Source: Eledone cirrhosa
Taxonomy: Eukaryota
Direction of reading: 5' to 3'
Assembly: GCA_964016885.1 (NCBI GenBank)
Contig: OZ024743.1
Location: 118,544,001-118,608,000 of the forward strand
Length of the DNA: 64,000 bases
Position numbers and translations under genes: made by a program. The notes under the pieces were generated by a model. The model searched no databases, had not been told where the DNA came from, and saw only the letters and a program-made list of their open reading frames with translations. Shown here in pieces: positions 1 to 42,863 of the stretch (its first letter is position 1; each line of letters opens with the position of its first letter).

Positions 1-14
1 ATATATATATACAT

Positions 15-71
<57 letters not shown>

Positions 72-253
72 CACATACATACACATACACATATGCATAC
101 AGGTACACATACATATATGCACGCATCAGTTTAGCCGACGTTTATTATAACGCGTGCTTTGTTCGTTTGTTTGTCAACAAATCGAACAGCCTGAATTTAT
201 GCCATACAGTGTTAAGGCAACCACGTCACCTTTTTGTTCAACACTGACACAGG

Positions 254-299
254 AACGATGTACTAGTTTCAAGCTTGTTAGCTATCATCAGCACCGTTT
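254..299 (-). ncRNA. Minimal type I hammerhead ribozyme (family R1, inverted copy)
   Basis: Minus strand reads aacggtg-CTGATGA-t-agct-aaca-agct-t-GAAA-ctag-TA-catcgtt. Confidence 0.8.
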
Positions 300-445
300 A
301 CCCATCTGCCACATTTTTTTCAACTTATCGTTCTCGGTATGCCTGACCGATTTAACTCACTCAATATGCAAATTAGGCTGCTCAGCCGTTAATTTTCATA
401 AGGAAAGTATATACTTTCGAACGTTCAACTATCTGGCAGATGGGT

Positions 446-491
446 AAACGGTGCTGATGATAGCTAACAAGCTTGAAACTAGTACATCGTT
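446..491 (+). ncRNA. Minimal type I hammerhead ribozyme (family R1)
   Basis: Stem I is aacggtg/catcgtt (7 bp with one GU). Core CTGATGA at 454-460, short stem II, GAAA, palindromic stem III ACTAGT and a GUA cleavage triplet. Confidence 0.82.
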
Positions 492-673
492 CCTGTGTCA
501 GTGTTGAACAAAAAGGTGACGTGGTTGCCTTAACACTGTATGGCATAAATTCAGGCTGTTCGATTTGTTGACAAACAAACGAACAAAGCACGCGTTATAA
601 TAAACGTCGGCTAAACTGATGCGTGCATATATGTATGTGTACCTGTATGCATATGTGTATGTGTATGTATGTG

Positions 674-742
<69 letters not shown>

Positions 743-859
743 GCATGCTACTGTACGTCTGTATGCATATATGTATGTACGTATACATACATACTTACAT
801 TTAAGTAAGTGCCATACTAAGAGTGAGAAATGAAATTTCGTTTTCATTTTTTTCAACTT

Positions 860-4952: not shown

Positions 4953-6350
4953 CTATATATTGGGCTTAAAGTTTTGGAAGGAATGTCTGAAGCGGTGCTG
5001 GCAAGTTGCAAACACCTCAGATTTTTTATTAAGTAGGTTACGGTTGGAGAAGATAATATTGTGTGTCTCTAGTATACAGAGGTTACAAAATTGATTAGGT
5101 GGTTTGTGCGAGGTCGCGCTGCCTATCACTTCCCATTTGAGTGTGTATGGTTTATTTTTAGTTTTTAGATAGTGTATGTAGCTAGAAAGTGAGGTGGAGT
5201 TGGCTAGGCTGTACTTTTTGAACGAGTGGATGTGCGAATTATATCTGATTTTGAAGCAGTTAGAAGTGGAGCCTACATAGCTTTCTGAAGAGTTGCTAGT
5301 CGTGACGGTGCATGAGTATATGATATCCTTGGTTAGGCATTTTTTATCTAAAGGGCAGGTTCTATTAGCTCTACAGTTACAATTATCCTGTGTGTTAGTC
5401 TGCTGGTTATAATGCAGTGCGGAAGTCCGTGTGGTAGCTATAGGATTTTGGACGTTCGGGTTGTCAACCCTGGTGTTATTACTTATACTAGTGTTATTTC
5501 TATTGTTACTGCCGTTACTATGGTTGCTTGTTACAGAGGTATTTAGAGGTTTTGCATCTTGTTGTGATTTTGTTTGTTGGAAGTAAGAATTAATTTTACT
5601 TTTATTGCTGTTAGCTATGTGGTATGCTAAGTTAGGCGTCGTAGAGTATGAGCTTTTAATGGTGTTTTTGTTTAAGAGGTTGTGGTACTTGTGTCCTAGA
5701 GGGAAGTTTTTATCTAGTAGTGAGAAGAAAGCCCTAGGTATGTTGGTGGAGACATTTAGGTTGAAAGGAGGGTTGAAAAATGTATTATTTCTTCTTCTAT
5801 TTTTGCTTTTAGTGTTTGGTGTGTTGCTTCTTCCTAAGGCACCACAGTAGTTTCCATGGTAATGGTTACTTCCGGTGGCACCCTCCACTTTGGTGTACTT
5901 GTGGTTGCTATTCCTATTATTAGGTTTCCTCATGGACATGTTGTGCGATATGATGTTGTAGCTATGTGTTTTCTTAGGTAGGAACTCAATTTCTATATTA
6001 TGGCCGGATCTAGCTAATGCTTGATTGTAATATTGTGAGTTTTTGCTAAATATGTTTGCGTCATAGGACAGACTAGAGATTCTATTGGACACCCCCTTAG
6101 AGATAGAGTTTAATATTGATCTAGGGTGATTGGACTTGGTATCTACATAAATAAGTTTCTCGTTAGGCTTATGGAAGGGTGTATATATTTTTGAGTCTAG
6201 GTATAGTGTGGCTTCTAGGAAGTTAACATTTTTAGTGTTTTTGTCCATGGTGATACTAAGGTTAAAGTTTTTGAATATCTTATGCAATTGTTTTCTAGTT
6301 CTTTCTATATTAAATTTTTTATATTCTATAAGTAGAAGTGCATCATCCAC
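4953..6350 (-). pseudogene. 5'-truncated PLE ORF: RT from the catalytic DD onward, thumb, Cys linker and GIY-YIG endonuclease
   Basis: DDALLL, VNFLEATL, SNHP..I, FFNPPFNLNVSTNI, CNCR...CPL..C, IIYSC...YVGST..FKIRY..H, C..C..E, LLNKKSE. The start is created by the inversion junction. Confidence 0.88.
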
Positions 6351-6612
6351 ACATATCTCTCTGCCACACTATATAAACAAGACGCACATGCCTGCCACAC
6401 ATATAACATTTGCACTATATAACCGCTTATCTTCATGTTGTATTTTAACCTGTATTTTTGATTTTTGATTGTACCTCTTAATATGAATGTAATCTCGAAA
6501 TGTGTACTGCCACTCTAAATTCTGTAATGAATGTTGACCCACAATGTTTGCATATGTATCGGTATGTCTCTTGGCTGAAAAGGAGGTCATATAACTGTCC
6601 ATGCATTAATAA

Positions 6613-11452: not shown

Positions 11453-11518
<66 letters not shown>

Positions 11519-11719
11519 ATATTTGGGGAGGGTCATATTTGCGTAATATTGCCAGAATTAATAACAGAACACACTCACTGTTTGGTTGGTTTTCGCTTCT
11601 CGCTGTCTTTTATATATATATATCTGCGATCTAACTTACTCGGTCCTCAATGTTGCCATTGACTGACCGGCGGTCAAAAATAATACAGATACAATATAGA
11701 CAAACACTTATATATATAG

Positions 11720-11766
11720 TTTACATAAATCTTTCGTTGCACATCTGCAACATCGTCAGTGGTGTT
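11720..11766 (-). ncRNA. Minimal hammerhead motif in the PLE-B pseudo-LTR (identical copies at 15850-15896 and 19980-20026)
   Basis: acacca-CTGACGA-t-gttgca-gatg-tgcaac-GAAA-gatt-TA-tgt. Stem II is a perfect 6 bp and stem I is weak. Confidence 0.68.
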
Positions 11767-12036
11767 ATATTCATTGTTCCTCCTGTTGTGTTGTATGTCT
11801 ACGCCATTTTTTTTGTTCAGTCTGTCTATATATTTATTTATTTATTTGCTTGTTTGTTTATCTTATTTTATTTTGTCTTCTTTGCGCATGCGTTTGCGTG
11901 TGTGTATAGTGTTATGTGTGATGTGTGATGTGTGACTAGTGTGTATAGTGTTGTCTGCTGGGTGACTAGTGTGTGTTTATGTGCTTGTGTATGTATTTAT
12001 TTATCTTATTTTATTTAATTTAATTTACTTATTTAT

Positions 12037-15000
12037 TTATACTTCTCTTAGGTCAGTGTTGTTTGTTTGGGTGTTGTTGTTGTTCCACTCATTCTTTCTG
12101 TTTAGCTTTGGTCTTCTAATTTCTATTTCACTGGCCTCTCTGATTTGCCTATCTGCTGGGTCATTCCTATGTTTAGATATTATTCTAATTTCTATGTTGT
12201 CTATGTTACCGTCATGATGTTGTCTAGCATGTTCGTATAGTACTGGCCCGTTTTTTCGTCCTTTTAGTTCCCCCCAGTGTTGGTCTATCCTTTCACCTAT
12301 GCTACGAGCTGTCTCACCTATGTATGTTGTTGTCGTGTTTCTGCAAGTACCCTCTGTACATCTTATGCTATAGACTACGTTTCTAGTTTTACAGTTTATC
12401 CGGGGGTTCACCTTACATATGATACATTTCCTATTGGTACAGTGGGTTTTCTTAAAAGGGTAGGTTTTGCTGATCAGGGATTTTATGGTGGTTCCTGGCT
12501 TTTCTACCACCTTTATTTTTAAGTGGGTCTTTCTCAGGGCCTTTCTACACTGGTTAGCTAATTTCCCTCCAGGGGTGGCGTCCACAAACATGACACTCTG
12601 ATATCTCTGGTTGTCGTACCATGATGTGGCCTTCCCTATCTTATGTCTAGCCCTATCTAAGCTATTCCATGATTTGCTCCTGTATAGTGGGCAAATTCCT
12701 TTCATGTCCAGTTCTATGAGGGTCTTATACTTTTCCATGGCTCCTTCGTATACTCTGACTCTGTCTCTTTGGTTGTAGCCAGAGAACTGCATGCGGTTGA
12801 TGAAGTGTTGGATGTGTCCTTCCATTTCTGTTGGGTCGCACATGCTGGACACATTCTTCATCACTCGTACCAAATCTGCGATCAGAATATTAAACTTAGC
12901 ACTACTGGACATTGCTGAGTTTTTGAGTATCAGGTATTTGGAGGCCATGGGTTTAGCATAGTGTGAGTGGAGAATTTGGGCTCTCTCGTCTATAGTGTTA
13001 ATCCAGAGTTCTGTGTCTAATACAGGTAGTCTATTGTTAGGGTGTTTGGAAGGGAAGTCTATAGTTACAGTTATACTCTGGTGTATGGAATTAGCTATCT
13101 GCTGGATGCTTTCCATCGTGCTACGTTCTAAATCAAACTTGTTAGTGCTCTCTAGTGGGGGTGTTCTTATAACTATATTGATATCGTCTACATAACGAGA
13201 GTACATGATGAGGTCTATGGAGCTTTCATTAAGGAGATCTTTAAGTCTCCTTTCCCACCATACCATGAAAAGGTTGGCAACATCGCCAGCTATGCTGACG
13301 CCGATGGCTGCTCCCTCATTTTGGGTGTAGATTTTCTCATTGAACTTAAATATGTGGCCCTTTAGGGTAGTTTTGATACTAGCCCCTATTGCATGTGCGA
13401 CCATTTTTCTTACCTGATCAGTGTTTTGGGGGGTCCGTATAGCTTTGGTCCACCCAATCCACCTTCCTATGGGAGTCTTTTTAGCCATTGAGGTTATGGT
13501 GGGGGGTCTACCTCTTATAGGTCTACTAGGGCAGAAACATCTAAGGTCATGGCTGTCTAGGTAGTCAGTGTCGTAGGTAAGTCTAAGTAGGAGGCCCAGT
13601 TCGTCTGTGTCGACGTCGCAGAACTCCACCTCACTCTCAATGATCATCTCCACACATCTTTTCACAGCAAAATCAATGTTAATGGATGGGTACAGTGACA
13701 CCACATCCATGCTGCCTATTATGCAGTTGGATAGGCTCCTGTTTTTGTTGCACTCACTGATTCTGCTGAGGAGGTCCTCTGTACTTTCACATACATCTGG
13801 GGACATCTTGATTATGGGGCGTATAACCATTGAGAGGAAGTAGGAGATCCTGTAGTTGCTAGCTATATTAGCTCCGCATACAGGTCTTGTTGGTGGTCCT
13901 ATTGTCGGGTCGTCGACTGTCTTGTGGTCTTTGCGGAGCCCATACAAGGGTGGTATGCCATTGTTAGACGCCTGGAAGTTGTTGGCAGTGCGTCTGCTTG
14001 GCTTTAGGATGTCAGTCCACATCATCATGTGAGCGTTGAGGATTTTTTCTCTCCCATCGTGTGTTAGTTGTGCAACTTCGCTCGTGTTGGTGATGTGGGG
14101 TTGCATTGCCTCGATGTAGTTCGGCATGCTATCTATTGACATCCTACCAGACTTATCTGTGGGTAGACACACTACCTCACCATCCCTTGTGCGCTGCTTG
14201 AGGCTAACCAAGCCTTCTACAGGTTTTATCCCAAGTTGTTGGGCCTCTGGTCTGCTCTGTCTCATAGTGTACCTGTCTACTACTTGTCTAATCTTATTTC
14301 TAGCTATGGTGAACTGTGCCTCCGTCTCGTCATCTATTTGTTGTGGTATGCAAACTCTTTTATTAAAGGGTAACCTCGTAGGATAGATATTACCCATCTT
14401 ATATGTTTTGTCAGCTGGGTTGAAAAATAGTTTCTCTAAGGGGTTGTCGTTATTTCTATCGTCATAGTTGTGTGTGTTGCTATTATTGTTATCATGGTGG
14501 TTGTTGTTGTTTCTATCCTTAGCATTAATATTATTATTGTTATGATTGCTAGATGTATTGTTGTTTACTTCACCGTTATTGTTGTTGTTACTGCTATTTC
14601 TACCATTGTGGTTGTTACTATTATTATGTTTCTTGTTTTTGTTGATGTTGCTACATGTACTATTTCCATTATTACCACTGTGGTTATTGTTGTTGTTGTT
14701 GTTCGTATTGTTACCGTTATTACTACTGTGGTCACTGTTGCTGTGTCTGTGGTTAACGTTTCTATTATTATTATTATTGTGGTTGTTGTTGTTCTGTCTA
14801 TCGCTAGTATTATTACCATTATCACTATTTCTCACTTTCCTGCCATTGTTATGGTTATGGCTGTTATTTCTATACCCAGAGTTATTGTTTATATTACTAC
14901 TACCGTTATTATTGTTGTTGTTGTTTACCTTTGCATTCCAACGTATTTTTGTGAAACACTTTTCCAGCTCCGTTTTGCATTCCATAGGATTAATCTTTTT

Positions 15001-15666
15001 GTAGATGGCAAATTTTGGTGGTAACTTTAGGATTTGTTGTTCTTGTTCACTGATTAAAGTGTTCCCATAGATATTTACTGTGTGGTCATTGGTAAATTCT
15101 TCCGGTAGTTTTACATCACTCATACGGATGTTGTCGATGTTATCTGGGTATTTTTGAGAATATTCGATTTTCCTTTCTTGTAGTTTTTTCTTATTCATCC
15201 ATTCTAATTTCTTCTTGAAATGCCTACAGCATTCGTTTTGAGCATATTTCGTTTCGCGTCGGATGACGCTCATGAAGTCATCTCTCTCGTTTGCTGTGAT
15301 GAGATTTCGGATTTCCTTACCGTTGATGCGTTTTTGTCTGTAGAGTGCGTTGACTTTTGTGTATGTTGTTCTTTTCATATTAACTGTTATTGTGTGTTTT
15401 AGCCGTTCAGCTTGTGTTTTGTTCAATAATAAATTATTTACTTGTTTTGATATGTTTGTTGTGTATGTTTTGGAGGAAACACAGTGTTTTAAGAAGCGGA
15501 TTTGTTCTGTTGTTATTGTAGTTTTTATATAACAGAAAACAGTGTCTTTCAATAACCTTTCAGCTTGGCACAAGCTAATGCCATAGCGGCGATGAATTAG
15601 TTTTGCGAGGTTTTTTATATGAAATCGTGTGTCGAAACAGATATTGTTATATTTGGGGAGGGTCAT
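12037..15666 (-). CDS. PLE polyprotein, 1209 aa: Asn-rich insert, reverse transcriptase and GIY-YIG endonuclease
   Basis: PTDKSG, LYGLRKDHK, RPVC, SMDVVSLYPSI, GAAIG, RYVDD, LPVLD, C..C/C..C linker, VVYSI...YIGETAR..ER..H, R...E...I, PKLN. Confidence 0.95.
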   Translation of the reverse strand: MTLPKYNNICFDTRFHIKNLAKLIHRRYGISLCQAERLLKDTVFCYIKTTITTEQIRFLKHCVSSKTYTTNISKQVNNLLLNKTQAERLKHTITVNMKRTTYTKVNALYRQKRINGKEIRNLITANERDDFMSVIRRETKYAQNECCRHFKKKLEWMNKKKLQERKIEYSQKYPDNIDNIRMSDVKLPEEFTNDHTVNIYGNTLISEQEQQILKLPPKFAIYKKINPMECKTELEKCFTKIRWNAKVNNNNNNNGSSNINNNSGYRNNSHNHNNGRKVRNSDNGNNTSDRQNNNNHNNNNNRNVNHRHSNSDHSSNNGNNTNNNNNNNHSGNNGNSTCSNINKNKKHNNSNNHNGRNSSNNNNNGEVNNNTSSNHNNNNINAKDRNNNNHHDNNNSNTHNYDDRNNDNPLEKLFFNPADKTYKMGNIYPTRLPFNKRVCIPQQIDDETEAQFTIARNKIRQVVDRYTMRQSRPEAQQLGIKPVEGLVSLKQRTRDGEVVCLPTDKSGRMSIDSMPNYIEAMQPHITNTSEVAQLTHDGREKILNAHMMMWTDILKPSRRTANNFQASNNGIPPLYGLRKDHKTVDDPTIGPPTRPVCGANIASNYRISYFLSMVIRPIIKMSPDVCESTEDLLSRISECNKNRSLSNCIIGSMDVVSLYPSINIDFAVKRCVEMIIESEVEFCDVDTDELGLLLRLTYDTDYLDSHDLRCFCPSRPIRGRPPTITSMAKKTPIGRWIGWTKAIRTPQNTDQVRKMVAHAIGASIKTTLKGHIFKFNEKIYTQNEGAAIGVSIAGDVANLFMVWWERRLKDLLNESSIDLIMYSRYVDDINIVIRTPPLESTNKFDLERSTMESIQQIANSIHQSITVTIDFPSKHPNNRLPVLDTELWINTIDERAQILHSHYAKPMASKYLILKNSAMSSSAKFNILIADLVRVMKNVSSMCDPTEMEGHIQHFINRMQFSGYNQRDRVRVYEGAMEKYKTLIELDMKGICPLYRSKSWNSLDRARHKIGKATSWYDNQRYQSVMFVDATPGGKLANQCRKALRKTHLKIKVVEKPGTTIKSLISKTYPFKKTHCTNRKCIICKVNPRINCKTRNVVYSIRCTEGTCRNTTTTYIGETARSIGERIDQHWGELKGRKNGPVLYEHARQHHDGNIDNIEIRIISKHRNDPADRQIREASEIEIRRPKLNRKNEWNNNNTQTNNTDLREV

Positions 15667-16166
15667 ATTTGCGTAATATTGCCAGAATTAATAACAGAAC
15701 ACACTCACTGTTTGGTTGGTTTTCGCTTCTCGCTGTCTTTTATATATATATATCTGCGATCTAACTTACTCGGTCCTCAATGTTGCCATTGACTGACCGG
15801 CGGTCAAAAATAATACAGATACAATATAGACAAACACTTATATATATAGTTTACATAAATCTTTCGTTGCACATCTGCAACATCGTCAGTGGTGTTATAT
15901 TCATTGTTCCTCCTGTTGTGTTGTATGTCTACGCCATTTTTTTTGTTCAGTCTGTCTATATATTTATTTATTTATTTGCTTGTTTGTTTATCTTATTTTA
16001 TTTTGTCTTCTTTGCGCATGCGTTTGCGTGTGTGTATAGTGTTATGTGTGATGTGTGATGTGTGACTAGTGTGTATAGTGTTGTCTGCTGGGTGACTAGT
16101 GTGTGTTTATGTGCTTGTGTATGTATTTATTTATCTTATTTTATTTAATTTAATTTACTTATTTAT

Positions 16167-19100
16167 TTATACTTCTCTTAGGTCAGTGTTGTTTGTTTGG
16201 GTGTTGTTGTTGTTCCACTCATTCTTTCTGTTTAGCTTTGGTCTTCTAATTTCTATTTCACTGGCCTCTCTGATTTGCCTATCTGCTGGGTCATTCCTAT
16301 GTTTAGATATTATTCTAATTTCTATGTTGTCTATGTTACCGTCATGATGTTGTCTAGCATGTTCGTATAGTACTGACCCGTTTTTTCGTCCTTTTAGTTC
16401 CCCCCAGTGTTGGTCTATCCTTTCACCTATGCTACGAGCTGTCTCACCTATGTATGTTGTTGTCGTGTTTCTGCAAGTACCCTCTGTACATCTTATGCTA
16501 TAGACTACGTTTCTAGTTTTACAGTTTATCCGGGGGTTCACCTTACATATGATACATTTCCTATTGGTACAGTGGGTTTTCTTAAAAGGGTAGGTTTTGC
16601 TGATCAGGGATTTTATGGTGGTTCCTGGCTTTTCTACCACCTTTATTTTTAAGTGGGTCTTTCTCAGGGCCTTTCTACACTGGTTAGCTAATTTCCCTCC
16701 AGGGGTGGCGTCCACAAACATGACACTCTGATATCTCTGGTTGTCGTACCATGATGTGGCCTTCCCTATCTTATGTCTAGCCCTATCTAAGCTATTCCAT
16801 GATTTGCTCCTGTATAGTGGGCAAATTCCTTTCATGTCCAGTTCTATGAGGGTCTTATACTTTTCCATGGCTCCTTCGTATACTCTGACTCTGTCTCTTT
16901 GGTTGTAGCCAGAGAACTGCATGCGGTTGATGAAGTGTTGGATGTGTCCTTCCATTTCTGTTGGGTCGCACATGCTGGACACATTCTTCATCACTCGTAC
17001 CAAATCTGCGATCAGAATATTAAACTTAGCACTACTGGACATTGCTGAGTTTTTGAGTATCAGGTATTTGGAGGCCATGGGTTTAGCATAGTGTGAGTGG
17101 AGAATTTGGGCTCTCTCGTCTATAGTGTTAATCCAGAGTTCTGTGTCTAATACAGGTAGTCTATTGTTAGGGTGTTTGGAAGGGAAGTCTATAGTTACAG
17201 TTATACTCTGGTGTATGGAATTAGCTATCTGCTGGATGCTTTCCATCGTGCTACGTTCTAAATCAAACTTGTTAGTGCTCTCTAGTGGGGGTGTTCTTAT
17301 AACTATATTGATATCGTCTACATAACGAGAGTACATGATGAGGTCTATGGAGCTTTCATTAAGGAGATCTTTAAGTCTCCTTTCCCACCATACCATGAAA
17401 AGGTTGGCAACATCGCCAGCTATGCTGACGCCGATGGCTGCTCCCTCATTTTGGGTGTAGATTTTCTCATTGAACTTAAATATGTGGCCCTTTAGGGTAG
17501 TTTTGATACTAGCCCCTATTGCATGTGCGACCATTTTTCTTACCTGATCAGTGTTTTGGGGGGTCCGTATAGCTTTGGTCCACCCAATCCACCTTCCTAT
17601 GGGAGTCTTTTTAGCCATTGAGGTTATGGTGGGGGGTCTACCTCTTATAGGTCTACTAGGGCAGAAACATCTAAGGTCATGGCTGTCTAGGTAGTCAGTG
17701 TCGTAGGTAAGTCTAAGTAGGAGGCCCAGTTCGTCTGTGTCGACGTCGCAGAACTCCACCTCACTCTCAATGATCATCTCCACACATCTTTTCACAGCAA
17801 AATCAATGTTAATGGATGGGTACAGTGACACCACATCCATGCTGCCTATTATGCAGTTGGATAGGCTCCTGTTTTTGTTGCACTCACTGATTCTGCTGAG
17901 GAGGTCCTCTGTACTTTCACATACATCTGGGGACATCTTGATTATGGGGCGTATAACCATTGAGAGGAAGTAGGAGATCCTGTAGTTGCTAGCTATATTA
18001 GCTCCGCATACAGGTCTTGTTGGTGGTCCTATTGTCGGGTCGTCGACTGTCTTGTGGTCTTTGCGGAGCCCATACAAGGGTGGTATGCCATTGTTAGACG
18101 CCTGGAAGTTGTTGGCAGTGCGTCTGCTTGGCTTTAGGATGTCAGTCCACATCATCATGTGAGCGTTGAGGATTTTTTCTCTCCCATCGTGTGTTAGTTG
18201 TGCAACTTCGCTCGTGTTGGTGATGTGGGGTTGCATTGCCTCGATGTAGTTCGGCATGCTATCTATTGACATCCTACCAGACTTATCTGTGGGTAGACAC
18301 ACTACCTCACCATCCCTTGTGCGCTGCTTGAGGCTAACCAAGCCTTCTACAGGTTTTATCCCAAGTTGTTGGGCCTCTGGTCTGCTCTGTCTCATAGTGT
18401 ACCTGTCTACTACTTGTCTAATCTTATTTCTAGCTATGGTGAACTGTGCCTCCGTCTCGTCATCTATTTGTTGTGGTATGCAAACTCTTTTATTAAAGGG
18501 TAACCTCGTAGGATAGATATTACCCATCTTATATGTTTTGTCAGCTGGGTTGAAAAATAGTTTCTCTAAGGGGTTGTCGTTATTTCTATCGTCATAGTTG
18601 TGTGTGTTGCTATTATTGTTATCATGGTGGTTGTTGTTGTTTCTATCCTTAGCATTAATATTATTATTGTTATGATTGCTAGATGTATTGTTGTTTACTT
18701 CACCGTTATTGTTGTTGTTACTGCTATTTCTACCATTGTGGTTGTTACTATTATTATGTTTCTTGTTTTTGTTGATGTTGCTACATGTACTATTTCCATT
18801 ATTACCACTGTGGTTATTGTTGTTGTTGTTGTTCGTATTGTTACCGTTATTACTACTGTGGTCACTGTTGCTGTGTCTGTGGTTAACGTTTCTATTATTA
18901 TTATTATTGTGGTTGTTGTTGTTCTGTCTATCGCTAGTATTATTACCATTATCACTATTTCTCACTTTCCTGCCATTGTTATGGTTATGGCTGTTATTTC
19001 TATACCCAGAGTTATTGTTTATATTACTACTACCGTTATTATTGTTGTTGTTGTTTACCTTTGCATTCCAACGTATTTTTGTGAAACACTTTTCCAGCTC

Positions 19101-19796
19101 CGTTTTGCATTCCATAGGATTAATCTTTTTGTAGATGGCAAATTTTGGTGGTAACTTTAGGATTTGTTGTTCTTGTTCACTGATTAAAGTGTTCCCATAG
19201 ATATTTACTGTGTGGTCATTGGTAAATTCTTCCGGTAGTTTTACATCACTCATACGGATGTTGTCGATGTTATCTGGGTATTTTTGAGAATATTCGATTT
19301 TCCTTTCTTGTAGTTTTTTCTTATTCATCCATTCTAATTTCTTCTTGAAATGCCTACAGCATTCGTTTTGAGCATATTTCGTTTCGCGTCGGATGACGCT
19401 CATGAAGTCATCTCTCTCGTTTGCTGTGATGAGATTTCGGATTTCCTTACCGTTGATGCGTTTTTGTCTGTAGAGTGCGTTGACTTTTGTGTATGTTGTT
19501 CTTTTCATATTAACTGTTATTGTGTGTTTTAGCCGTTCAGCTTGTGTTTTGTTCAATAATAAATTATTTACTTGTTTTGATATGTTTGTTGTGTATGTTT
19601 TGGAGGAAACACAGTGTTTTAAGAAGCGGATTTGTTCTGTTGTTATTGTAGTTTTTATATAACAGAAAACAGTGTCTTTCAATAACCTTTCAGCTTGGCA
19701 CAAGCTAATGCCATAGCGGCGATGAATTAGTTTTGCGAGGTTTTTTATATGAAATCGTGTGTCGAAACAGATATTGTTATATTTGGGGAGGGTCAT
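16167..19796 (-). CDS. PLE polyprotein, 1209 aa, second intact copy
   Basis: Identical to 12037-15666 except KNGSVL versus KNGPVL. Confidence 0.95.
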   Translation of the reverse strand: MTLPKYNNICFDTRFHIKNLAKLIHRRYGISLCQAERLLKDTVFCYIKTTITTEQIRFLKHCVSSKTYTTNISKQVNNLLLNKTQAERLKHTITVNMKRTTYTKVNALYRQKRINGKEIRNLITANERDDFMSVIRRETKYAQNECCRHFKKKLEWMNKKKLQERKIEYSQKYPDNIDNIRMSDVKLPEEFTNDHTVNIYGNTLISEQEQQILKLPPKFAIYKKINPMECKTELEKCFTKIRWNAKVNNNNNNNGSSNINNNSGYRNNSHNHNNGRKVRNSDNGNNTSDRQNNNNHNNNNNRNVNHRHSNSDHSSNNGNNTNNNNNNNHSGNNGNSTCSNINKNKKHNNSNNHNGRNSSNNNNNGEVNNNTSSNHNNNNINAKDRNNNNHHDNNNSNTHNYDDRNNDNPLEKLFFNPADKTYKMGNIYPTRLPFNKRVCIPQQIDDETEAQFTIARNKIRQVVDRYTMRQSRPEAQQLGIKPVEGLVSLKQRTRDGEVVCLPTDKSGRMSIDSMPNYIEAMQPHITNTSEVAQLTHDGREKILNAHMMMWTDILKPSRRTANNFQASNNGIPPLYGLRKDHKTVDDPTIGPPTRPVCGANIASNYRISYFLSMVIRPIIKMSPDVCESTEDLLSRISECNKNRSLSNCIIGSMDVVSLYPSINIDFAVKRCVEMIIESEVEFCDVDTDELGLLLRLTYDTDYLDSHDLRCFCPSRPIRGRPPTITSMAKKTPIGRWIGWTKAIRTPQNTDQVRKMVAHAIGASIKTTLKGHIFKFNEKIYTQNEGAAIGVSIAGDVANLFMVWWERRLKDLLNESSIDLIMYSRYVDDINIVIRTPPLESTNKFDLERSTMESIQQIANSIHQSITVTIDFPSKHPNNRLPVLDTELWINTIDERAQILHSHYAKPMASKYLILKNSAMSSSAKFNILIADLVRVMKNVSSMCDPTEMEGHIQHFINRMQFSGYNQRDRVRVYEGAMEKYKTLIELDMKGICPLYRSKSWNSLDRARHKIGKATSWYDNQRYQSVMFVDATPGGKLANQCRKALRKTHLKIKVVEKPGTTIKSLISKTYPFKKTHCTNRKCIICKVNPRINCKTRNVVYSIRCTEGTCRNTTTTYIGETARSIGERIDQHWGELKGRKNGSVLYEHARQHHDGNIDNIEIRIISKHRNDPADRQIREASEIEIRRPKLNRKNEWNNNNTQTNNTDLREV

Positions 19797-20305
19797 ATTT
19801 GCGTAATATTGCCAGAATTAATAACAGAACACACTCACTGTTTGGTTGGTTTTCGCTTCTCGCTGTCTTTTATATATATATATCTGCGATCTAACTTACT
19901 CGGTCCTCAATGTTGCCATTGACTGACCGGCGGTCAAAAATAATACAGATACAATATAGACAAACACTTATATATATAGTTTACATAAATCTTTCGTTGC
20001 ACATCTGCAACATCGTCAGTGGTGTTATATTCATTGTTCCTCCTGTTGTGTTGTATGTCTACGCCATTTTTTTTGTTTTTTTTGTTCAGTCTGTCTATAT
20101 ATTTATTTATTTATTTGCTTGTTTGTTTATCTTATTTTATTTTGTCTTCTTTGCGCATGCGTTTGCGTGTGTGTATAGTGTTATGTGTGATGTGTGATGT
20201 GTGACTAGTGTGTATAGTGTTGTCTGCTGGGTGACTAGTGTGTGTTTATGTGCTTGTGTATGTATTTATTTATCTTATTTTATTTAATTTAATTTACTTA
20301 TTTAT

Positions 20306-21260
20306 TTATACTTCTCTTAGGTCAGTGTTGTTTGTTTGGGTGTTGTTGTTGTTCCACTCATTCTTTCTGTTTAGCTTTGGTCTTCTAATTTCTATTTCAC
20401 TGGCCTCTCTGATTTGCCTATCTGCTGGGTCATTCCTATGTTTAGATATTATTCTAATTTCTATGTTGTCTATGTTACCGTCATGATGTTGTCTAGCATG
20501 TTCGTATAGTACTGACCCGTTTTTTCGTCCTTTTAGTTCCCCCCAGTGTTGGTCTATCCTTTCACCTATGCTACGAGCTGTCTCACCTATGTATGTTGTT
20601 GTCGTGTTTCTGCAAGTACCCTCTGTACATCTTATGCTATAGACTACGTTTCTAGTTTTACAGTTTATCCGGGGGTTCACCTTACATATGATACATTTCC
20701 TATTGGTACAGTGGGTTTTCTTAAAAGGGTAGGTTTTGCTGATCAGGGATTTTATGGTGGTTCCTGGCTTTTCTACCACCTTTATTTTTAAGTGGGTCTT
20801 TCTCAGGGCCTTTCTACACTGGTTAGCTAATTTCCCTCCAGGGGTGGCGTCCACAAACATGACACTCTGATATCTCTGGTTGTCGTACCATGATGTGGCC
20901 TTCCCTATCTTATGTCTAGCCCTATCTAAGCTATTCCATGATTTGCTCCTGTATAGTGGGCAAATTCCTTTCATGTCCAGTTCTATGAGGGTCTTATACT
21001 TTTCCATGGCTCCTTCGTATACTCTGACTCTGTCTCTTTGGTTGTAGCCAGAGAACTGCATGCGGTTGATGAAGTGTTGGATGTGTCCTTCCATTTCTGT
21101 TGGGTCGCACATGCTGGACACATTCTTCATCACTCGTACCAAATCTGCGATCAGAATATTAAACTTAGCACTACTGGACATTGCTGAGTTTTTGAGTATC
21201 AGGTATTTGGAGGCCATGGGTTTAGCATAGTGTGAGTGGAGAATTTGGGCTCTCTCGTCT

Positions 21261-21264
<4 letters not shown>
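20306..21264 (-). pseudogene. 5'-truncated third copy of the PLE-B ORF (thumb and GIY-YIG)
   Basis: Matches the C-terminal about 320 aa and is truncated at (TA)n at 21265. Confidence 0.93.
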
Positions 21265-21300
<36 letters not shown>

Positions 21301-22475: not shown

Positions 22476-23791
22476 GAATGGAGGATCAAAAAAGTTCGCG
22501 GAGTTTTTCAGAAAATATTCTATTTTTCAAAAAATATGATTTACCATCAATTTATTTTTCTACATAGTTTGATATCCAGGTCAATACACTTGACAAGGCG
22601 ATGCTTCCAGCTTCGTAAGCCGTCTCTAAAGAAAGTTGAAGGCCTTGTTCGAAGCCATGTGTTGGCAGTGCTTTTAGCTTCTTCAACACCACTAACACGG
22701 GTTCCTTTTAGCATTTCTTTGAGTTTTGGAAAGAGGAAAAAGTCTGATGGGGCTAAATCTGGACTATAAGGCGGGTGAGGAAGCACTTCCCATCGAAATT
22801 CTCGAGGAACTTCTTTTGCAACCCACGCAGAATGCGCTGGTGCATTGTCATGGTGAAACAAGATCCCACCATGAAGTTTCCCTTTTCGTTTCTTGACTAA
22901 AGCCTCTTTCAGCTTCCTTAAAACATTTGCATAGTAAGCTCCTGTCACAGTTCTTTGACCTTCAAGATAATCTATTAGTATCACCCCATCTGAATCCCAG
23001 AAAATGGTGGCCATCACTTTTTGATCCGACTTTTGAGATTTGAACTTGATTGGCCCCGATGATCCACGTGGAAGCCACTGTTTTGACTGCTGTTTGGATT
23101 CAGCATCATACTGGTAGATCCAGGTTTCATCTCCGGTGATGATTCTGGTCAGGAAATGCTCTTCATCAACTTCAATTTTGTTTAATATCGTCAAAGACAG
23201 ATCACTTCGAAGAATCAGCTGATTAGGGCGTAACGCTTTTGGGACGGATCGCGCTGAAAGCTTGCTTAGTCCCAAATTATCGTGTAGAATTGAATTTGCC
23301 GAACCATATGAAATGTCTAGGGACTTAGCTAACTGATTAACTGTTATTCTTCGATCTTCTTCAATTAAAGTCTGAGCAGCCTCAACGTTTTGGTCATTTT
23401 TTTTATGTTCCTAGTCTTCCTTGTGATGGTCGTCTTCAAGGTCGTCTCTCCCTTGTTTGAATCGCTGAATCCACTTGTAGAGAGCAGTTTTCTTTGGAGC
23501 AGTAGTACTGTAAACTTTAACTAAAACCTCCATAATCTGTGTCCCTTTCCATTTCAGTTTCACCAGAAACTTGATATTCGATCTTATCTCAAAATAACTA
23601 TTTTCCATTGTTCCAAAACGAGGTTTTTTAAAGAGTGTCAGTACTGTACAATAGTCCACGCATAACTGACTGCAAGTGACTAATAGCAAGGTAAACACCC
23701 AGTGACAATGTTCTGACATGTTTAATATTGTTTTAATCTATTTTTTTCTTACTACGATAAAATTCCGCGAACTTTTTGATCCCCCATCGTA
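22473..23791 (-). mobile_element. Mariner (DD34D) transposon, full-length but decayed
   Basis: Imperfect TIRs of about 30 bp (acga.tgg.ggatcaaaaagttcgcgga.tttt) flanked by TA runs. Length is about 1.3 kb. Confidence 0.93.
22547..23608 (-). pseudogene. Frameshifted mariner transposase
   Basis: TGDETW, HHDNAPAH, YSPDLAPSDF and a degenerate WVP (RSVPKAL). The N-terminal HTH part is in a separate frame (23411-23608). Confidence 0.92.
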
Positions 23792-24414: not shown

Positions 24415-26979
24415 TCAAGTTATAAATTGGGTGTTGAGTTCTAGTCTATTATTGATTGGTGGTAGTGTTTTGTCTATAATTAGTGCTTCCTTAATTCTAA
24501 GATTGCCGAGGTTTCTTTCCTTAGTTTCTATCCTAACTGTTATGGTTTTGTCGGTGCTTTTGCATTTAACTAGGTGTTTCTTAAATAAGGAAGCGTTAGT
24601 ATGGAGGTGTTCTTTTATTCTTATGTGGAGTGGTCTGGTGGTGCTACCTACGTAGAAGTTGCTGCATTTGTCACACTCTAGACTGTATACGCCGTAAGCC
24701 TGGTGGCATAGGTCTGTGTCGTTGATGGAGCAGTTGGCTAGCCTGCAGCAGTTGTCATGTCTGGTGGAGTGTCTTTTGGTTAGCTGTCCGCGTAGAGAAG
24801 GGCCTGAGTGGGCCAGTTGGATATCTAGTCCCTCTCGTCTGATAGCTCTGCGGATGGCTGTTGTTGTTTCGTCACTGAAGTGTGGGAGCTTCAGGAAGCA
24901 AGTATTAGTGCCTCGGGTGTGGTGTCCTCTGTTCTTTCTAGCACGGTTTGTGGTGGATGTCTTGTATCCGTTAAGTTTGAGTACTTCCAGGAAATGTGTG
25001 GTGTGCGTGTCTCGGTCTCTAGCGTCGGTGCATTTGTTCCGGATACGTGTAGTTCGTTCCTTATGTATCCGAACATAGCGCCGGCTGGGAGGGCCGATCT
25101 GAAATGTACGAACAGCTCCCTGCTGGCGGCTTTTTTTATAGAAGCAAGTATGGATGTTGCCTTCCTCTGTTACCCTGAGTTGGAAGTCCAGTAGGGAAAG
25201 GGATCCGCGGTCATCGGGGTGTTCCATGCTGAACTTTATACTGGCGTCCATGCTGGAGAATGTTGTGTATATTTTATCTGCCTCCTCACGGGATGATGTA
25301 AGGATGAGTATTTCATCTACATATCGTGTGAAGAAGGTATGGGAATGGCAGGTGTTGAGGGCTCGGCATTCTAGCTGGTTCATATAGGTGATGGCCAGCA
25401 GATCCGATAGGCTGGATCCCATGGGTAATCCTGTTGTCTGTCTGTATGTGTGGTGGTGGAAGGTGAAGTATGTGTTGTCTACTGTGAAGGACAAAAGCTG
25501 GTGTATGTCCGTCGGGTGGAGGCCGTAGCAGTGGATGTCCTCTGCGACCACGCAGTCCGTCAATAAATCGACAGCTGGATGAGCGGGGACTGTAGTGTAG
25601 AGGGAGACAATCTCGAGGCTAAAGGCGTATCTATTTAGTTTAAGTTGTTCTGTCTGGAGTTGGTGTAGTCTCCGTATAACTTCGTCGGAGCTACTGACAT
25701 GCCCGGGAAAGGTGGAGAGTAGAGGCTTGAGGACCTGCGAGAAGAGCCAGGAAATTTTGTATAGGGGTCCTTCTATGCTGGAGACGATGGGTCTTATTTG
25801 CGTCTTAGTACTATTCTTGTGGGTCTTGATGAGGTGGTAGAAAGTGGGCAGTCTGCTATTTCTAGTGGTGTAGTTGAGCTTAACTTTATTTGGCAGTTGT
25901 CTTCTCCTACAGATATCGAACCAGATGGAGTTGGTCTGTTTTTCGATCTGGGCTGCAGTCATGTTTGGGATCTCTGTATATAATTCATTGTCGCTTAGAT
26001 GTTCAAAGGCTAGGTTGTTGTATGTGGCTTGAGATATGACGCAAAACTCTTTACCTTTGTCGGATGGTAAGTATATAAGTTCCCTATTCCGTAGGTTCTT
26101 CAGGGCGAGTTGTTGTGTCCTGGTGAGGTTTGGGGATATCTTCTTCTGTTTCCGTAAGATGTTAAATGCGGAATGTTTTAGCCCCAAGAGTTTTTCTTCA
26201 AGCTCGCGGTTGGCAGGCGGTGGACAGAGTGAGTGGGCGATCCAGTTGGTATATCGGGAATCTGGGTTTATTATGATTCCGTGGTGTTGTTGCCGAGATC
26301 GATATCCATTTTAGTTGGTAGGCAGCCCGACAGAAATTCGTTTCTATGTCGAGCCATAATTTGTCGTCCAGTCTCTGTTTTAATATGAACTTGGGACCCA
26401 GGCTGAGGAGGTCTAATTCCTCTCGGGAGAGGGATCCTGTCAAGTCTGTGACGAGGTGTTTTGCGTCAGGTGTGTTGTTGGTCGGGGCACCGCTAGGCTC
26501 GGTGTTGGTACCGTCTTGTTCACCTCTGTTGGTGCTTAGAGTTGGGCTGTTGTAAAGACGGTTAGCCGTGCTGAGTTTGAGAAATTTTTGGCGTTAGGCG
26601 TATTTTCTCGTAGTCTCAGAGATGGTAGTATGACCTGTCTATAGCGGCGGAGATAACTCTGGACAGAGGTTCTGGGGTTTCAGCGAGTTGTGGTACAAGG
26701 CTAGAAATAGTCCGTATGTGTTGTTGTAGCGTGCGGTGTAGGTGTTGTATGAGTTTTCTTAGGCAGAATGTTTGTATGTAACTAAGTGATCGTTTGAGGC
26801 CTGGTGATTTGAAGCATGTTTGTAGGTGCAAATTTTTGATAGTTTTGGGGATGATGTTGTTATTCAGACATCGTTTTAGGAAGTTTATTTGGCAGCTAGC
26901 TGGAAGAGTTTCTTTACAGTTGTGAACTGGGCCTGGCTCAGGCGTAAGGAAAGGAGGGGGTTATAGTTCACTTGAAGCA
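24415..26979 (-). pseudogene. PLE-C RT/GIY-YIG ORF with frameshifts, stops and YVDE at the catalytic site
   Basis: LLSLGPKF, PSDKG, LIKTHK, IRPIVS, SLYT, GLPMGS, RYVDE, VYSL.C..C..FYVGSTTR...R..EH, IKEALII. Confidence 0.9.
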
Positions 26980-30004: not shown

Positions 30005-31345
30005 AATGGAAAATTTGAACAGGAACAAAACAGAGAGGCAGTACAACGAATGTTTATTAATTTCACGCTCTGGAGAGTGGGGTGGTGGTGGGGAACGACG
30101 TTTCGGGCATAAGCCCTTCTTCAGGTGAAAAGTGTGTGGGAAGAGAGTTCAAAGGGTGTGTAGGCAAGTGGTGGAGAGACATATAGCGAAAAGGGGGTGG
30201 GAGGAAACGGTGCGAATGAAATTAAAAATAAAAGCATGATCAAAATAAAATAAAATTAAAATGGGGTAAAACAGGTGGTGGAAGGGTGTGGGGTGTGTAG
30301 GGGTGGTGGCGGGTGGAGTGGGGACAGGGAGACGGGGTGTCGGAGCGGGGAGGGCTGAAGGTGGTGTGTGTGTAGGTGTACGTGTGTGTGTGTGTATGTG
30401 AAAGCAAGGGTTGGGGGAAGAACGGGGTTGCATGTTCAGGAAGAGGTGTGTGTGGGGTGGGGTGTAGGTCGGAGTGTGTGTGCGTGTGTGGATAGAGGGG
30501 TGTGGGGGAGAGGAATCCGGAGGCTGAAGGTGTAAATATGTGGTGGAAAGCAAGTGTGTGTAGGGATTAAGCGTGTTGTGGGTGTAGGTGGCGTGTGGGA
30601 AAAAAAACATTTTTTGGGGTGTGTGTGTGGGGGAGTTATAAAGGTGATTCCGTAAGAAGATGGGGTTGAAAGGTTGGTAAACTCCTAGGATGGTAGTTGA
30701 TTCTGCGGTCAAGCTCCACATACGAGTAATCCATGGAGAGATGGTCGGAAGAGGTGAGATGTGGGGTGCGCGCGCAACAGGAAGTGGTCAAGGCGGTAGG
30801 AGTGCTGTGTGTATGTGTGTGCGGGGAGGTGGTCAGAGGGCATAGCAGCAGTCGGGTGGAATGATAAAGGGGCGAGCATGGGTTGGTGTGAAAGTTGGAG
30901 TGAGGAGGGTGTGTGTGTGTATTAGTAGATTAGAGAGTGTGGTGTACTGGTGTGTGTGTAGTTTAATGAAGGGGGTGTTAGTGGCTGTTAGTATACGGGA
31001 GGTGGAGAAAGGGTTGAATGCAGGTGTGAGTGGGGGTTAGTGGTGGTGGGGTGTGTAGAGTTGGTGGTGTACGAGGGTGTGTGGGTACGTGTGCGTGGGG
31101 TTGGGGGGTGTTAGTGATGTTAGTTACAGTGTGGTGGGATGGATGTGTGGGGGTGAGGGTTAGTGGTGGTAGTAGGGTGTGTGTTTAGTGTGAGCGCGTG
31201 TATATATGTGCCGGTGGGTGTGTGCGTGTGATAAAGAGGGGGTGGAGAAGAAAGGAGGGATGTTAGTATGTTAGTTGGGGAAGGGTGGTCGGATGAGGGG
31301 TGGAGTGGAAGTGTTAGTATTGTTAGTTGTGGGGTGGGCGGTATA
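30005..31345 (-). mobile_element. PLE-type 3' end (family R4) with a minimal hammerhead and a long G/T-rich low-complexity body
   Basis: Bounded by (TA)n. Its first about 170 bp are homologous to 62665-62830. Confidence 0.6.
30092..30130 (-). ncRNA. Minimal hammerhead motif (family R4)
   Basis: cac-CTGAAGA-a-gggc-ttat-gccc-GAAA-cg-TC-gt, with palindromic stem III ACGT and a weak stem I. Confidence 0.68.
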
Positions 31346-31489
31346 TATTTATATATATATATATATATATACACGCACGCATATATATGTGTTTTCCATT
31401 ATATACATATATTTTAATTATTTAAAAATTAGTTTTAAGTGAACATGATTCTTAAATAAATATTTTGAAGTGAACATGACCCAACAGGT

Positions 31490-31830
31490 CACGGATGGTC
31501 TAGTTGCTAATAAAATACAAATCCTCCATTCGCATTCTGCTAAATCCATGGCCTCCAAGTACCTGATCCATCGGAACTCAGGTGTTTCGCATTACGTAAA
31601 AGTCAACATATTGATTCCGGACTTAGTAAGAGTAATGAAGAATGTGACCCACATGTGCGATCTTAAATAATTAGCGAGACACGCACAACACTTCATCCAC
31701 CGCATGCAGTTCTCTGGTAACAAACAAAGACTGCTAAACAAACCGTGCTAAATGGATGAATATCATAGAAATAGATACGGATGGGACTTGCCATATATCT
31801 AGGAACGAATTTTTGAATATGATAGAGAGA
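31490..31830 (+). pseudogene. Old diverged PLE-B-family fragment, continuing 21510-21695
   Basis: QILHSHSAKSMASKYLI..VNILIPDLVRVMKNV..QHFIHRMQFSG matches the 1209-aa ORF. Confidence 0.88.
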
Positions 31831-32263
31831 CAGTCAAGTAGAAAACAAATATGAAGCATATATACAATCTGACACAAAACACGTTTGATTTTATGCAGCG
31901 GTTAAAATAAAATATGGAATTTCAAACTCCCAAATATAAAATTTTCTCTGAAACATTTGAATAAAAATGTAAAACTTATCATTAGATATGAATTGATATA
32001 TTTAACAAAATTGTTTTATTCAGATCAGGCTAGCACTACAAATTAGAGATCACCATCCTTATTCCTCTGATGGACAAACATATCTTGCAGTAAACAACAC
32101 ACCAACAATTTAGCTGAAATCCATATCACTACTGCACGAACAGAAGAACAAAAAATCTTGTAGCCACCTTAAACGTGAGTTGGCATGATATAGAATTGGA
32201 GGCAGTAAACTAAATAGCAGACAATTATCTGAAGGCCTCACAGATCAAAGGCATTGGACCAAC

Positions 32264-33547
32264 ATAAGCTTGCATCATCCAACACTTACTTCAATGTGAT
32301 TCAGTTCTTAACACATGCGGGTAGTCAGCCACATGTGTGTATCTTCACTCCCGCCTGTGCAGTCACTTTTTGCACAACACCTGAATTGTGGTGTTTCCAT
32401 CCTCCATCCAAATCTATATTACCAGAGCAACACACGTTTCTTGATGAAAGCCCAACTTATCTAACCGGTTAGATCCGGCCTACTCCACTAGTTCTTGCTC
32501 CTTATCCGTAAGGGTTGCAACGTTCATTGATGAAGTCACTGCAGCGTCAAGTGTTTAGACTGAATCATACAGCCTAATGAGCGGCCTCAATGCCCATGTT
32601 CACACTGATCACCTCACATGGAAATGAGTGATTGGAAGTAAAGGGGATTTCGATTTAAATGCGAAGTTTGAGGTCTTATTGGACTTCTGCTCTAGTAATC
32701 GGGTGTCTAGGACGAATTCCTTGTTCAAGCTCAAAGTATACATGGTATAAGAGAAATTAGGACCAGAGATCAGAATTCATTTTGATATTGTCTCTGATAT
32801 CTTCGATAGTGTGCTGGATGTTCGTGTTTAGAGAGAAGCGGCACTTTCAGTTGGTCACCATCTAGTTATCTATAACCTCAAAATACATAGAATCAAAATA
32901 AACCCACATAACTGGCAGATCCAACTCGATCCAGCTCGACCTTAAAGTGGGATGCACTGCCAGATAAATATTTCGGGACCTGGTATGCGGGGATTATTAC
33001 ATCCAAATTTTTAGAACCCACGAAAAAAACTGAGGATATTGAAACTGAGTGCAGACTTTTCAGCCTGGCAGATTTTGCTTCAGCTGTTAAATGCTGCTGG
33101 CCAAAGCGGTTCGGTATGGCATCGAGAGAAAGGAGGATTCCCTAATTGAATCATGAGATCAAAGATGCCATTTAAACAAAGAAGGAGGCTTACAAATCGT
33201 GGCTTGGAAATAAGTGTTTCTACTTCTACTGGCGGTACAATCAGGCGATGAAAGCCGAAGAGAAAACACTGCAGGAGTGCAAGGTTATCATGGGAGAATG
33301 TATGACTGAACTTGAGTTTGTGGAGAAAGAATGTTGGGCTTTCATCAAGAAACGTCCGTTGCTCTCGTAAAGTATCTTTGGATGGAGGATGGAAACACCA
33401 CTATTCAGGTTTGGTACCAAAAGTGACTGCACAGGCGGGAGTGGAGATACACACATGTGGCTGGATGCCGGCATGTTTTATGGACTGAATCACATTGTGA
33501 TGTAGGATTTACCTCTTTTAGTAAATGTTGGATGATGCAAGCTTATG
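32264..33547 (+). mobile_element. RTE-clade LINE relic (APE endonuclease region) with an inverted duplicated segment
   Basis: Decayed G.LNAHV, LLDFC..N, TNS.F, YTWY, DVRV.R.A.LS..HHLV and KKEAYKSWL. Inverted repeat at about 32264-32455 / 33333-33547. Confidence 0.75.
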
Positions 33548-34044
33548 CTCCAAAAAAACAACCGGAATACAGATTGTAGAACTAATAAGGAAATAAAACA
33601 GATGGGCAGGAATAGTTACCTAGATTTGCAAAACAATATTCTGAGAATGGGGAAATAGAGGGTGTGAGGGAGAGAGGAGGAAGTAGAGGGGAGAGAGGTA
33701 AGGAGAGAAATGCGATATATTGCTAGGACAAAAGACGGTGTATATGTATAATTAGAGAAGGGATGGCATGAGGAAAGATAAATGAATGGTTAGTTGGTTG
33801 CAAAATATCCCATGTAAATAAAACAAAAGTTATTTTCAATTATATTTTTCTTTGTTTTGTCCTGGTTTTTAATATACAAAGGATAAATGGACCGACTGAC
33901 AAACAGCTAAACAGGCTTACAGACAATTAAATAGACACATTGAATTGACTGATAGGCAGATTGTTAGATGTATGTAAGGATAGATATAAAGATAACAGAT
34001 AATGTTGTTGGATGCTTGGGTATATATATTGATAATAGATAGAA

Positions 34045-34109
<65 letters not shown>

Positions 34110-34660
34110 AGAAAGAAAGAGAGAGGGGGGGGGGATAGATGAGATAGGAGGAGTGTAGTAGTGGAAGGAGGAGGAGGAGGAGTATGGAGCAAAAGAGTAA
34201 ATACACCAGCTGTTAACACTTCAAGCTGTCGGCACAAGTTGAGTCGGCCGACTATCTGGGACTGTTGCACTGTTAGAGTGTGTTATAACTTAAAACGTTA
34301 AATACTGAATAGTGGGCACTAACGTTGCCGTGTTGATGGTGGTGTTCATAGTGGTCGTGATGGAGCTTGTAATAATGATAAAAACGGTAGTAACGGGTAA
34401 CTGAGATGAGGAGTGCCTGTAAAAATTATTGAATAGACTTTTTTTTTTTTTTTTGCGAGAATGACTACTACAATACAAGTCGTTAGTTTCGTTAGTATGA
34501 AGATAATCAGGACGATGACAACGATAACGAGAATACCGACAAATGACGACAAAGACGATGACGATAGTGATGATAATGATAAGGGTGATAAAGTTAATAA
34601 TCATATTATTCAATCTCTAAATCGACTAAATCTTTGACTAAACTAAAGTTATATACCTTT

Positions 34661-34851
34661 AATAATTGTTTCTACTTTAGGCACAAGGCCAGCAATCAAC
34701 CAGTACATTACTGGTACTTTATTTTATCGACCCCGTAAGGATGAAAGACAAAGTTAATCTTGGCGGGATTTGAACTCAGACTGTAAAAGGACGTAACTAT
34801 GCTGGAAAGCATGGCGCCCAACCCTCTACCGATCCTGCCAATTCACCGCCC
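34661..34851 (-). mobile_element. tRNA-derived SINE with a Deu/Nin-type domain and a 16-bp TSD
   Basis: A box (TGGCAG.ATCGG), B box (GAGTTCAAATCC), the CTTTCATCCTTACGGGGTCGATAAAATAAAGTACCAG core and an (ATT)n tail. TSD atatacctttaataat. Confidence 0.9.
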
Positions 34852-34884
34852 TGCTATATACCTTTAATAATATTATAGCGTAAG

Positions 34885-41270: not shown

Positions 41271-41455
41271 TGGCAGTATCGATAGAGGGTCGGACGCCAT
41301 GCTTTGCAGCAAAGAGTTACGGCCCTTTATGGTCTGAGTTCAAATCCCGCCGAGGTTAACTTTGCCTTTCATCCTTACGGGGTGGATAAAATAAAGTACC
41401 AGTAATGTACTGGGTAATCGCTGGCCTTGTGCCAAATGTAGAAACAATTATTTAT
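41271..41455 (+). mobile_element. SINE copy
   Basis: A box, B box, core and tail. Confidence 0.9.
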
Positions 41456-42603: not shown

Positions 42604-42850
<247 letters not shown>

Positions 42851-42863
42851 TATATATATATAT

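Follow-up and report, generated by a model that had tools for sequence, protein, structure and literature searches.

In the genome of Eledone cirrhosa we identified a family of small, hammerhead-bearing repeats which, judged by sequence, is a non-LTR retrozyme with the full insertion signature of Penelope-type elements (PLEs), a kind already known. The retrozyme is ORF-less and likely a non-autonomous PLE, copied in trans by a PLE RT/endonuclease via a predicted self-cleaved, probably circular RNA. Seen directly are a closed unit with a conserved hammerhead core, the arrangement of units in arrays, arms that meet head-to-head, insertion into (TA)n, and two fixed 3′ ends, of which each arm uses one. 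The focal insertion was found in a 64,000-nt stretch, here called the window (118,544,001–118,608,000 in a 3.0-Gb assembly), and positions below count from the start of the window. Features of the family in the window are as follows.

1–311, minus strand: 5′ head of the long arm; the arm contains 11 full units and one part, with 12 hammerheads, and ends at S1 in (TA)n
254–298, minus strand: hammerhead of the first, truncated long-arm unit, identical to 447–491
312–858, plus strand: inverted short arm, consisting of a 533-bp unit and 14 further nt, ending at S2
366–373, plus strand: possible promoter octamer ATGCAAAT, inferred
447–491, plus strand: type I hammerhead motif, stem III palindromic, cleavage predicted after 484
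626–742, plus strand: internal TA/TG-rich microsatellite of the unit, a predicted long RNA hairpin
800–858, plus strand: 59-nt "tail" between the fixed 3′ ends S1 (799) and S2 (858), with predicted hairpins
859–1060, no strand: (TA)n target tract at the S2 end, adjoining the short arm
61,315–61,620, plus strand: decayed copy from family D, a distant relative, whose hammerhead-like motif has different stems and sits at the same place in the unit
62,977–63,825, no strand: second, older two-armed insertion of the family, hammerhead core intact; its minus arm ends at S1 and its plus arm at S2

The long and short arms of the focal insertion meet head-to-head and blunt at 311/312, and the long-arm array ends ~5,930 bases to the left of the window (~5.9 kb beyond its edge). 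Because the window edge cuts the insertion, a first-pass annotation had misread its anatomy. The inverted partial copy which it recognized is real, as the reverse complement of 434–744 equals 1–311 (275 nt exact), and the match arises because 1–311 heads a minus-strand array of the same units rather than being a lone copy. Of the (TA)n flanks that it reported, the tract from 859 is indeed a flank, whereas the (TA)n at 1–65 is the internal microsatellite of the unit. The 15-nt terminal redundancy that had suggested a circularly permuted monomer turned out to be a 17-nt repeat (312–328 = 845–861), a chance product of the 5′ truncation of the short arm; across the family, 5′ truncation points differ from locus to locus. 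The interruption pattern of the microsatellite provides a fingerprint of each insertion, and S1 and S2 are likely to be two reverse-transcription start sites.

The ~530-bp element is ORF-less, as initially described, and abundant in the genome. An exact 31-nt hammerhead core has 10,718 matches in the genome, a degenerate core has 25,356 and the tail motif has 14,360 exact matches, with 0 matches for the reversed control in each case. From a family of many thousands, ~130 loci were read. The first set comprised the ten best-scoring matches and is biased to young arrays; the second, 53 stretches around the first 100 listed core matches on contig C1; and the third, 38 stretches around those of the first 100 listed tail matches that did not lie at an exact core match, a set therefore enriched for older or truncated copies. 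Another 30 loci represent an older subfamily whose unit is ~420 bp long. The unit is closed and measures 420–550 bp. Of 90 unit starts in the 53 core-picked loci, 78 directly follow a tail and the other 12 are inversion or truncation junctions; in the 38 tail-picked loci, tails continue only into TA or a further unit. Across three natural consecutive units, the longest ATG frame encodes 112 aa and runs antisense across the microsatellite. Part of the family is young, with top copies 100% identical. The predicted monomer RNA is strongly self-paired (z −10.9, or −5.7 without the microsatellite). The sequence ATGCAAAT, which we take to be an octamer, is exact in 116/125 copies of the family and in 16/24 copies of family D; it may be a promoter element and is only a lead. 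The promoter of newt satellite 2 contains an octamer.

Each unit of the family carries a hammerhead motif, and the focal one can be described base by base. Stem I pairs 447–453 with 485–491 (7 bp including one G·U), CUGAUGA lies at 454–460, a U·U pair (461/474) precedes a 4-bp stem II (462–465/470–473), and GAAA at 475–478 is followed by the palindromic ACUAGU at 478–483; cleavage is predicted after A484. The 7-bp stem I, CUGAUGA, GAAA and palindromic stem III, which had been listed in support of a complete minimal type I hammerhead, all stand together with the type I assignment, and it is the term "minimal" that does not. Canonical metazoan type I motifs have a 6-bp helix I, a 4-bp helix II and a short palindromic helix III, and the minimal hammerhead of PLEs (min-HHR) has a helix II of 7–8 bp and a helix I of 4–5 bp (PMC4209133). 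With a helix II of 4 bp and a helix I of 6–7 bp, the focal motif is of the canonical metazoan type I and not a min-HHR. A covariance search, proposed as a check, recovered it weakly: the Rfam scan gave no match at gathering score, and the best weak match in 312–640 was to Hammerhead_HH9 at 440–502 (18.5 bits vs a cut-off of 52, E 0.047). Folding of 434–500 alone was not significant (z −0.95).

The hammerhead motif is not a chance occurrence, and its core is conserved beyond the flanks, the opposite of the outcome that would have spoken against the retrozyme proposal. All core letters are kept in 35 of the 38 tail-picked copies, in which mismatch to the window copy is 1.3% in the core, 9.3% in the flanks and 36% at free positions. 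In a set of 267 copies that is partly core-picked and holds overlapping locus records, variants shared by at least 4 locus records occur at 0/12 core columns vs 44/156 other columns (p 0.037); counting the stems together with the core leaves no significant difference (p 0.13). The 40 commonest variants listed for these copies include no indel at the 484/485 junction. A double change in stem I, from G·U to U·G, occurs in the older subfamily and is found in 32 locus records. Independent public contigs, of unrecorded kind, vary within the motif only at 447, 451, 458 and 468, none of which is a core letter. In family D all three stems are replaced yet paired, and stem III is another palindrome. 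Its U3·A8, present in 18 of 23 parsed copies (24 aligned), is a described core covariation (PMC4209133). The fourth core letter of family D is mixed C/T, which makes its ribozyme activity doubtful.

Other repeats were seen in passing. At least 10 other hammerhead families occur in TA-rich DNA at loci L031–L087, and a 310-bp tandem hammerhead array that starts at 6,447 in L051 is another likely retrozyme. The window holds more hammerhead-like motifs at 30,132 and 62,775 (minus strand), a mariner-type transposase fragment at 22,547–23,410 (minus strand), and ~10 dispersed copies of a ~190-bp repeat between 34,660 and 62,330, including a three-copy tandem at 51,217–51,832. From its appearance we take the ~190-bp repeat to be SINE-like.

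The layout of insertions was tabulated for 91 sampled loci (53 core-picked and 38 tail-picked), which resolve into 105 clusters. Tandem and inverted arrangements, both of which had been anticipated, are both present: 50 of the 105 clusters are two-armed with 3′ ends outward, 52 are one-armed, 1 is complex and 2 are edge-cut. Counting hammerheads over both arms in 103 clusters, 22 have none, 43 have one and 38 have at least two, leaving 65/103 with at most one. All 34 two-armed clusters in which both ends could be typed pair one S1 end with one S2 end (binomial p 6e-11 against one half); 16 more are untyped. Typed ends run into TA in 118 of 131 cases, which would mask any target-site duplication; in non-LTR retrozymes such duplications, when present, exceed 4 bp. 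No LTR pair was seen in the sampled layouts. The truncation points of the two arms are not linked (31 junctions, p 0.10), and neither arm tends to be the longer (S1 arm longer in 17/34).

Much of this anatomy is familiar from PLEs. Their insertions have inverted, 5′-truncated arms and a 30–40-bp tail often at one end only (PMC8557442, PMC3846280), the tail lies between two reverse-transcription start sites, and both target strands are cut and extended, without an apparent difference between strands in the start site used (PMC11167929). A bias to (TA)n targets is described for Hydra and Naiad, with a linker hypothesis for Neptune. The retrozyme family and EN+ PLEs of the Hydra and Neptune clades (PMC8557442, PMC3846280, PMC11167929) have in common partial tandems, a head-to-head inverted 5′-truncated arm, a one-ended tail, a pair of fixed 3′ ends, insertion into (TA)n and a hammerhead near the end. 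The retrozyme differs from them in having no ORF, in a tail of 59 nt vs the usual 30–40, and in placing its hammerhead ~315 nt before S1. It also differs from the anole PLE assayed in vitro, for which no strand difference was apparent (PMC11167929), in that each site always ends one arm. As the anatomy is already known for PLEs, what the family adds is the strict S1+S2 pairing at this sample size.

We propose the following route for copying of the retrozyme. Arrays would be transcribed, perhaps from an internal promoter containing the octamer; neighbouring hammerheads would pair their ACUAGU palindromes, act as a dimer and cut after 484, yielding a monomer of ~520–540 nt; and a host ligase would, by a narrow preference on our part, close the monomer. 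A PLE protein, most likely of the Hydra clade and otherwise Neptune-like, would bind the tail, nick both (TA)n strands, and prime one at S1 and the other at S2. Two cDNAs, each of variable extent, would then be joined head-to-head, and unequal exchange would later alter array length. As a tentative extension, which we hold with rather less than even confidence, each two-armed insertion could be the product of one asymmetric PLE complex acting on one retrozyme RNA, with the (TA)n strands obligatorily primed at S1 and S2.

For the template itself we lean slightly to a circular RNA. Within most of the 26 loci shown, units and inverted arm have a common microsatellite fingerprint (judged by eye, without a statistic), and the fingerprint differs between loci; L070, L093 and C1 are mixed. 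Such array-wide, locus-specific patterns suggest frequent bottlenecks through a single monomer, and the 484/485 junction free of indels among the commonest variants points the same way. The most substantial alternative, which we consider somewhat unlikely, keeps the same PLE passenger and makes a linear multimeric transcript the template: no circle would form, arrays would grow by unequal exchange and the hammerhead would only trim transcripts. It draws on variants common to units that do not adjoin. The focal array has a higher-order structure: the same two substitutions appear in units 6 and 10, and its spacers repeatedly come in pairs, a long one before a short one (post hoc permutation p 0.005). 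In the C96 array four units have four substitutions in common. Such shared variants argue against pure rolling-circle copying of a monomer. One insertion, recognized by its common flanks and junction, has ~25 units on C96 (~30,500–43,900) and ~6 on C3 (~134,036,200–134,039,600), a haplotype difference or an assembly collapse; unit number is therefore no read-out of the polymerase. Taken together, the shared variants and the difference in unit number indicate that arrays were remodelled after insertion, copied from multimers, or mis-assembled in length. A linear template also fits the majority of insertions, which are short, the uncleaved RNA that was the dominant substrate in vitro (PMC11167929), and the local amplification proposed in bioRxiv 10.64898/2026.07.22.740005. 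Also counting against the proposed route are the 65 of 103 clusters with at most one hammerhead and results from those two sources, in which, respectively, ribozyme mutants left PLE insertion in vitro unimpaired and only 1 of 9 Xenopus dimers tested was cleaved.

With either template the enzyme would come from elsewhere, since the retrozyme lacks the RT plus GIY-YIG ORF that an autonomous PLE requires. The proposal that it is a non-autonomous element mobilized by PLE machinery is supported by its (TA)n targets, its tail, its tandem arrays and its inverted arms. The same genome harbours intact autonomous PLEs whose two ends lie in (TA)n, and the window contains the following PLE sequences.

4,953–6,368, minus strand: 5′-truncated Hydra-type PLE ORF with a CxCx5C linker, undetected by Pfam
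11,511–21,265, minus strand: young PLE, a partial tandem of ~2.3 copies of a 4.13-kb unit, between (TA)n tracts
24,415–26,310, minus strand: third PLE, with RVT_1 and GIY-YIG domains
63,842–64,000, minus strand, and L088: paired pseudo-LTRs of the Hydra-type element PLE-H, which has a hammerhead of its own and a ~95-nt tail; the window copy adjoins the second retrozyme insertion

The frame of PLE-H is 821 aa long. The element has many intact copies, its near-identical matches number at least 150, and its layout is two-armed and two-ended, like that of retrozyme insertions. One of 28 homologues is named, from Argonauta hians (37% identity). Its RW, DKT and CxCx5C motifs place it in the Hydra clade as defined in PMC8557442, where a (TA)n-targeting Hydra family is listed for Octopus bimaculoides. 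The PLE at 11,511–21,265 encodes a 1,216-aa frame that includes an asparagine-rich region, has two ends in TA, was missed by Pfam, and is Neptune-like by its Cx2-5CxxC linker; its 3′ end also occurs inverted at 1,061–1,121, just right of the focal insertion. Our best guess for the helper, from the TA bias and two direct fusions, is a member of the Hydra clade, otherwise a Neptune-like element. The fusions are at L061 and L064, where the retrozyme is joined directly to pieces of the PLE-H ORF.

Several candidates were set aside. PLE-H, although fused at L061 and L064, was rejected as parent as its own pseudo-LTR and hammerhead are unrelated to the retrozyme unit; two further Hydra-type families have no homology to the unit; and the PLE ORF found near L166 is part of a different hammerhead family. 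At 8 of 16 head-to-head junctions examined, the retrozyme joins a foreign element without TA between. These one-armed insertions (L052, L055, L056, L072, L075, L077, L078 and L099), in which the partner is a truncated 3′ piece, reflect either mixed-template insertion or later insertion with deletion. We did not count them in favour of a helper, because in three of them the partner is a (GAT)n-tailed element, probably LINE-derived, and later insertion plus deletion fits equally. Separately, a short motif with the core GTTGAGC or GTCGAGC was observed just upstream of the ORF in several Hydra-type families (L132, L227, L245–L248, L255 and L259), often in a small predicted hairpin; in two of the families it lies immediately beyond the end of the tail. 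It is possibly a protein-binding or promoter element.

Could the copies simply be solo or heavily 5′-truncated pseudo-LTRs, derived from an autonomous PLE that was not sampled at full length? We regard this as improbable. Every insertion mark is PLE-like, L061 and L064 are fused to Hydra-type ORF pieces, and the loci read are a small part of the family. In opposition to it, 78 of 90 unit starts come after the tail and none comes after a 3′ UTR or ORF, so that direct attachment of most copies to an RT/GIY-YIG ORF, the outcome named beforehand as pointing to a plain solo pseudo-LTR, was not what we found; tails lead only into TA or the next unit; and the fused PLE has a pseudo-LTR and hammerhead of its own. 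Among 64 loci of three Hydra-type families, a profile of the retrozyme family detected no autonomous PLE with a homologous pseudo-LTR; it matched only family copies, and none of the three PLE termini in the window. A DNA-level satellite or MITE/Helitron-type repeat, with the hammerhead a leftover, is very improbable: tandem arrays, an internal microsatellite and array remodelling after insertion would suit it, whereas copies that are fixed at the 3′ end and variably truncated at the 5′ end, set in head-to-head arms and provided with a tail, bear the marks of retro-copying, and the core is kept across subfamilies while the flanks drift. That the inversion and array at the focal locus are an assembly artefact of fold-back reads in TA-rich DNA is hardly credible, despite the near-perfect identity of the arms, the TA tracts and the differing unit number of another insertion in two assembled versions, given that the two arms stop at two distinct fixed sites, which holds for all 34 typed insertions elsewhere, diverged ones included, and that public contigs cover the family deeply.

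Non-LTR retrozymes have been described in coral, mussel and axolotl, and related retrozymes make circular RNAs (PMC7229834). Like the present family, they are short, low-GC, ORF-less tandem units in thousands of copies, with a type I hammerhead per unit, a weak palindromic helix III, a predicted self-paired RNA and PLEs in the same genome; the axolotl HHR_Amex2 shares the U·U at the base of helix II (PMC7229834). The retrozyme here has a GC content of 33.8%, within the trait of less than 45–50%, and tandem units with at least 2 complete motifs. Its unit is longer (420–550 bp vs ~170–400), and it differs from the coral, mussel and axolotl retrozymes, as the main text of PMC7229834 presents them, in its internal microsatellite and (TA)n targeting; inverted arms are common here, and the terms "inverted", "microsatellite" and "target site" are absent from that main text. 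Cleavage and circles were demonstrated for those retrozymes, whereas the present family is known from its sequence. Newt satellite 2 is likewise a tandem hammerhead repeat, which cleaves as a dimer (PMC7229834); PMC2220036 cites a promoter of snRNA type within it, whereas the promoter proposed here is a motif only.

Animal retrozymes have been argued to be non-autonomous PLEs in a study of 31 vertebrates, 3 insects and a coral (bioRxiv 10.64898/2026.07.22.740005). Its range of unit sizes, 51–972 bp, covers the present unit, and two consecutive units with complete motifs, the rule applied there, are found here. The PLE link in that study consists of co-occurrence and pseudo-LTR similarity; here it consists of insertion anatomy, a homologous pseudo-LTR not having been found in the sampled loci. 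A literature search that was thin on subscription papers and supplements found no description of a cephalopod retrozyme, and the word "ribozyme" is absent from the main text of a repeat annotation of Octopus vulgaris (PMC13282606).

The link between PLEs and retrozymes has so far been based on co-occurrence and sequence similarity, and the origin of the tandem and inverted insertions of PLEs and of their tail has been named as an open question (PMC8557442). The present family is small in unit, partly young and represented by many thousands of insertions, with a strict rule of one end of each kind. It offers a natural data set, and its 530-nt unit would be a ready substrate if the in vitro assay of PLEs described in PMC11167929 were applied to it. 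If two-armed insertions do arise from one asymmetric complex on one RNA, this would explain the inverted arm, the one-ended tail and the fingerprint common to both arms, and would constitute direct genomic evidence of retrozyme copying by PLE enzymes.
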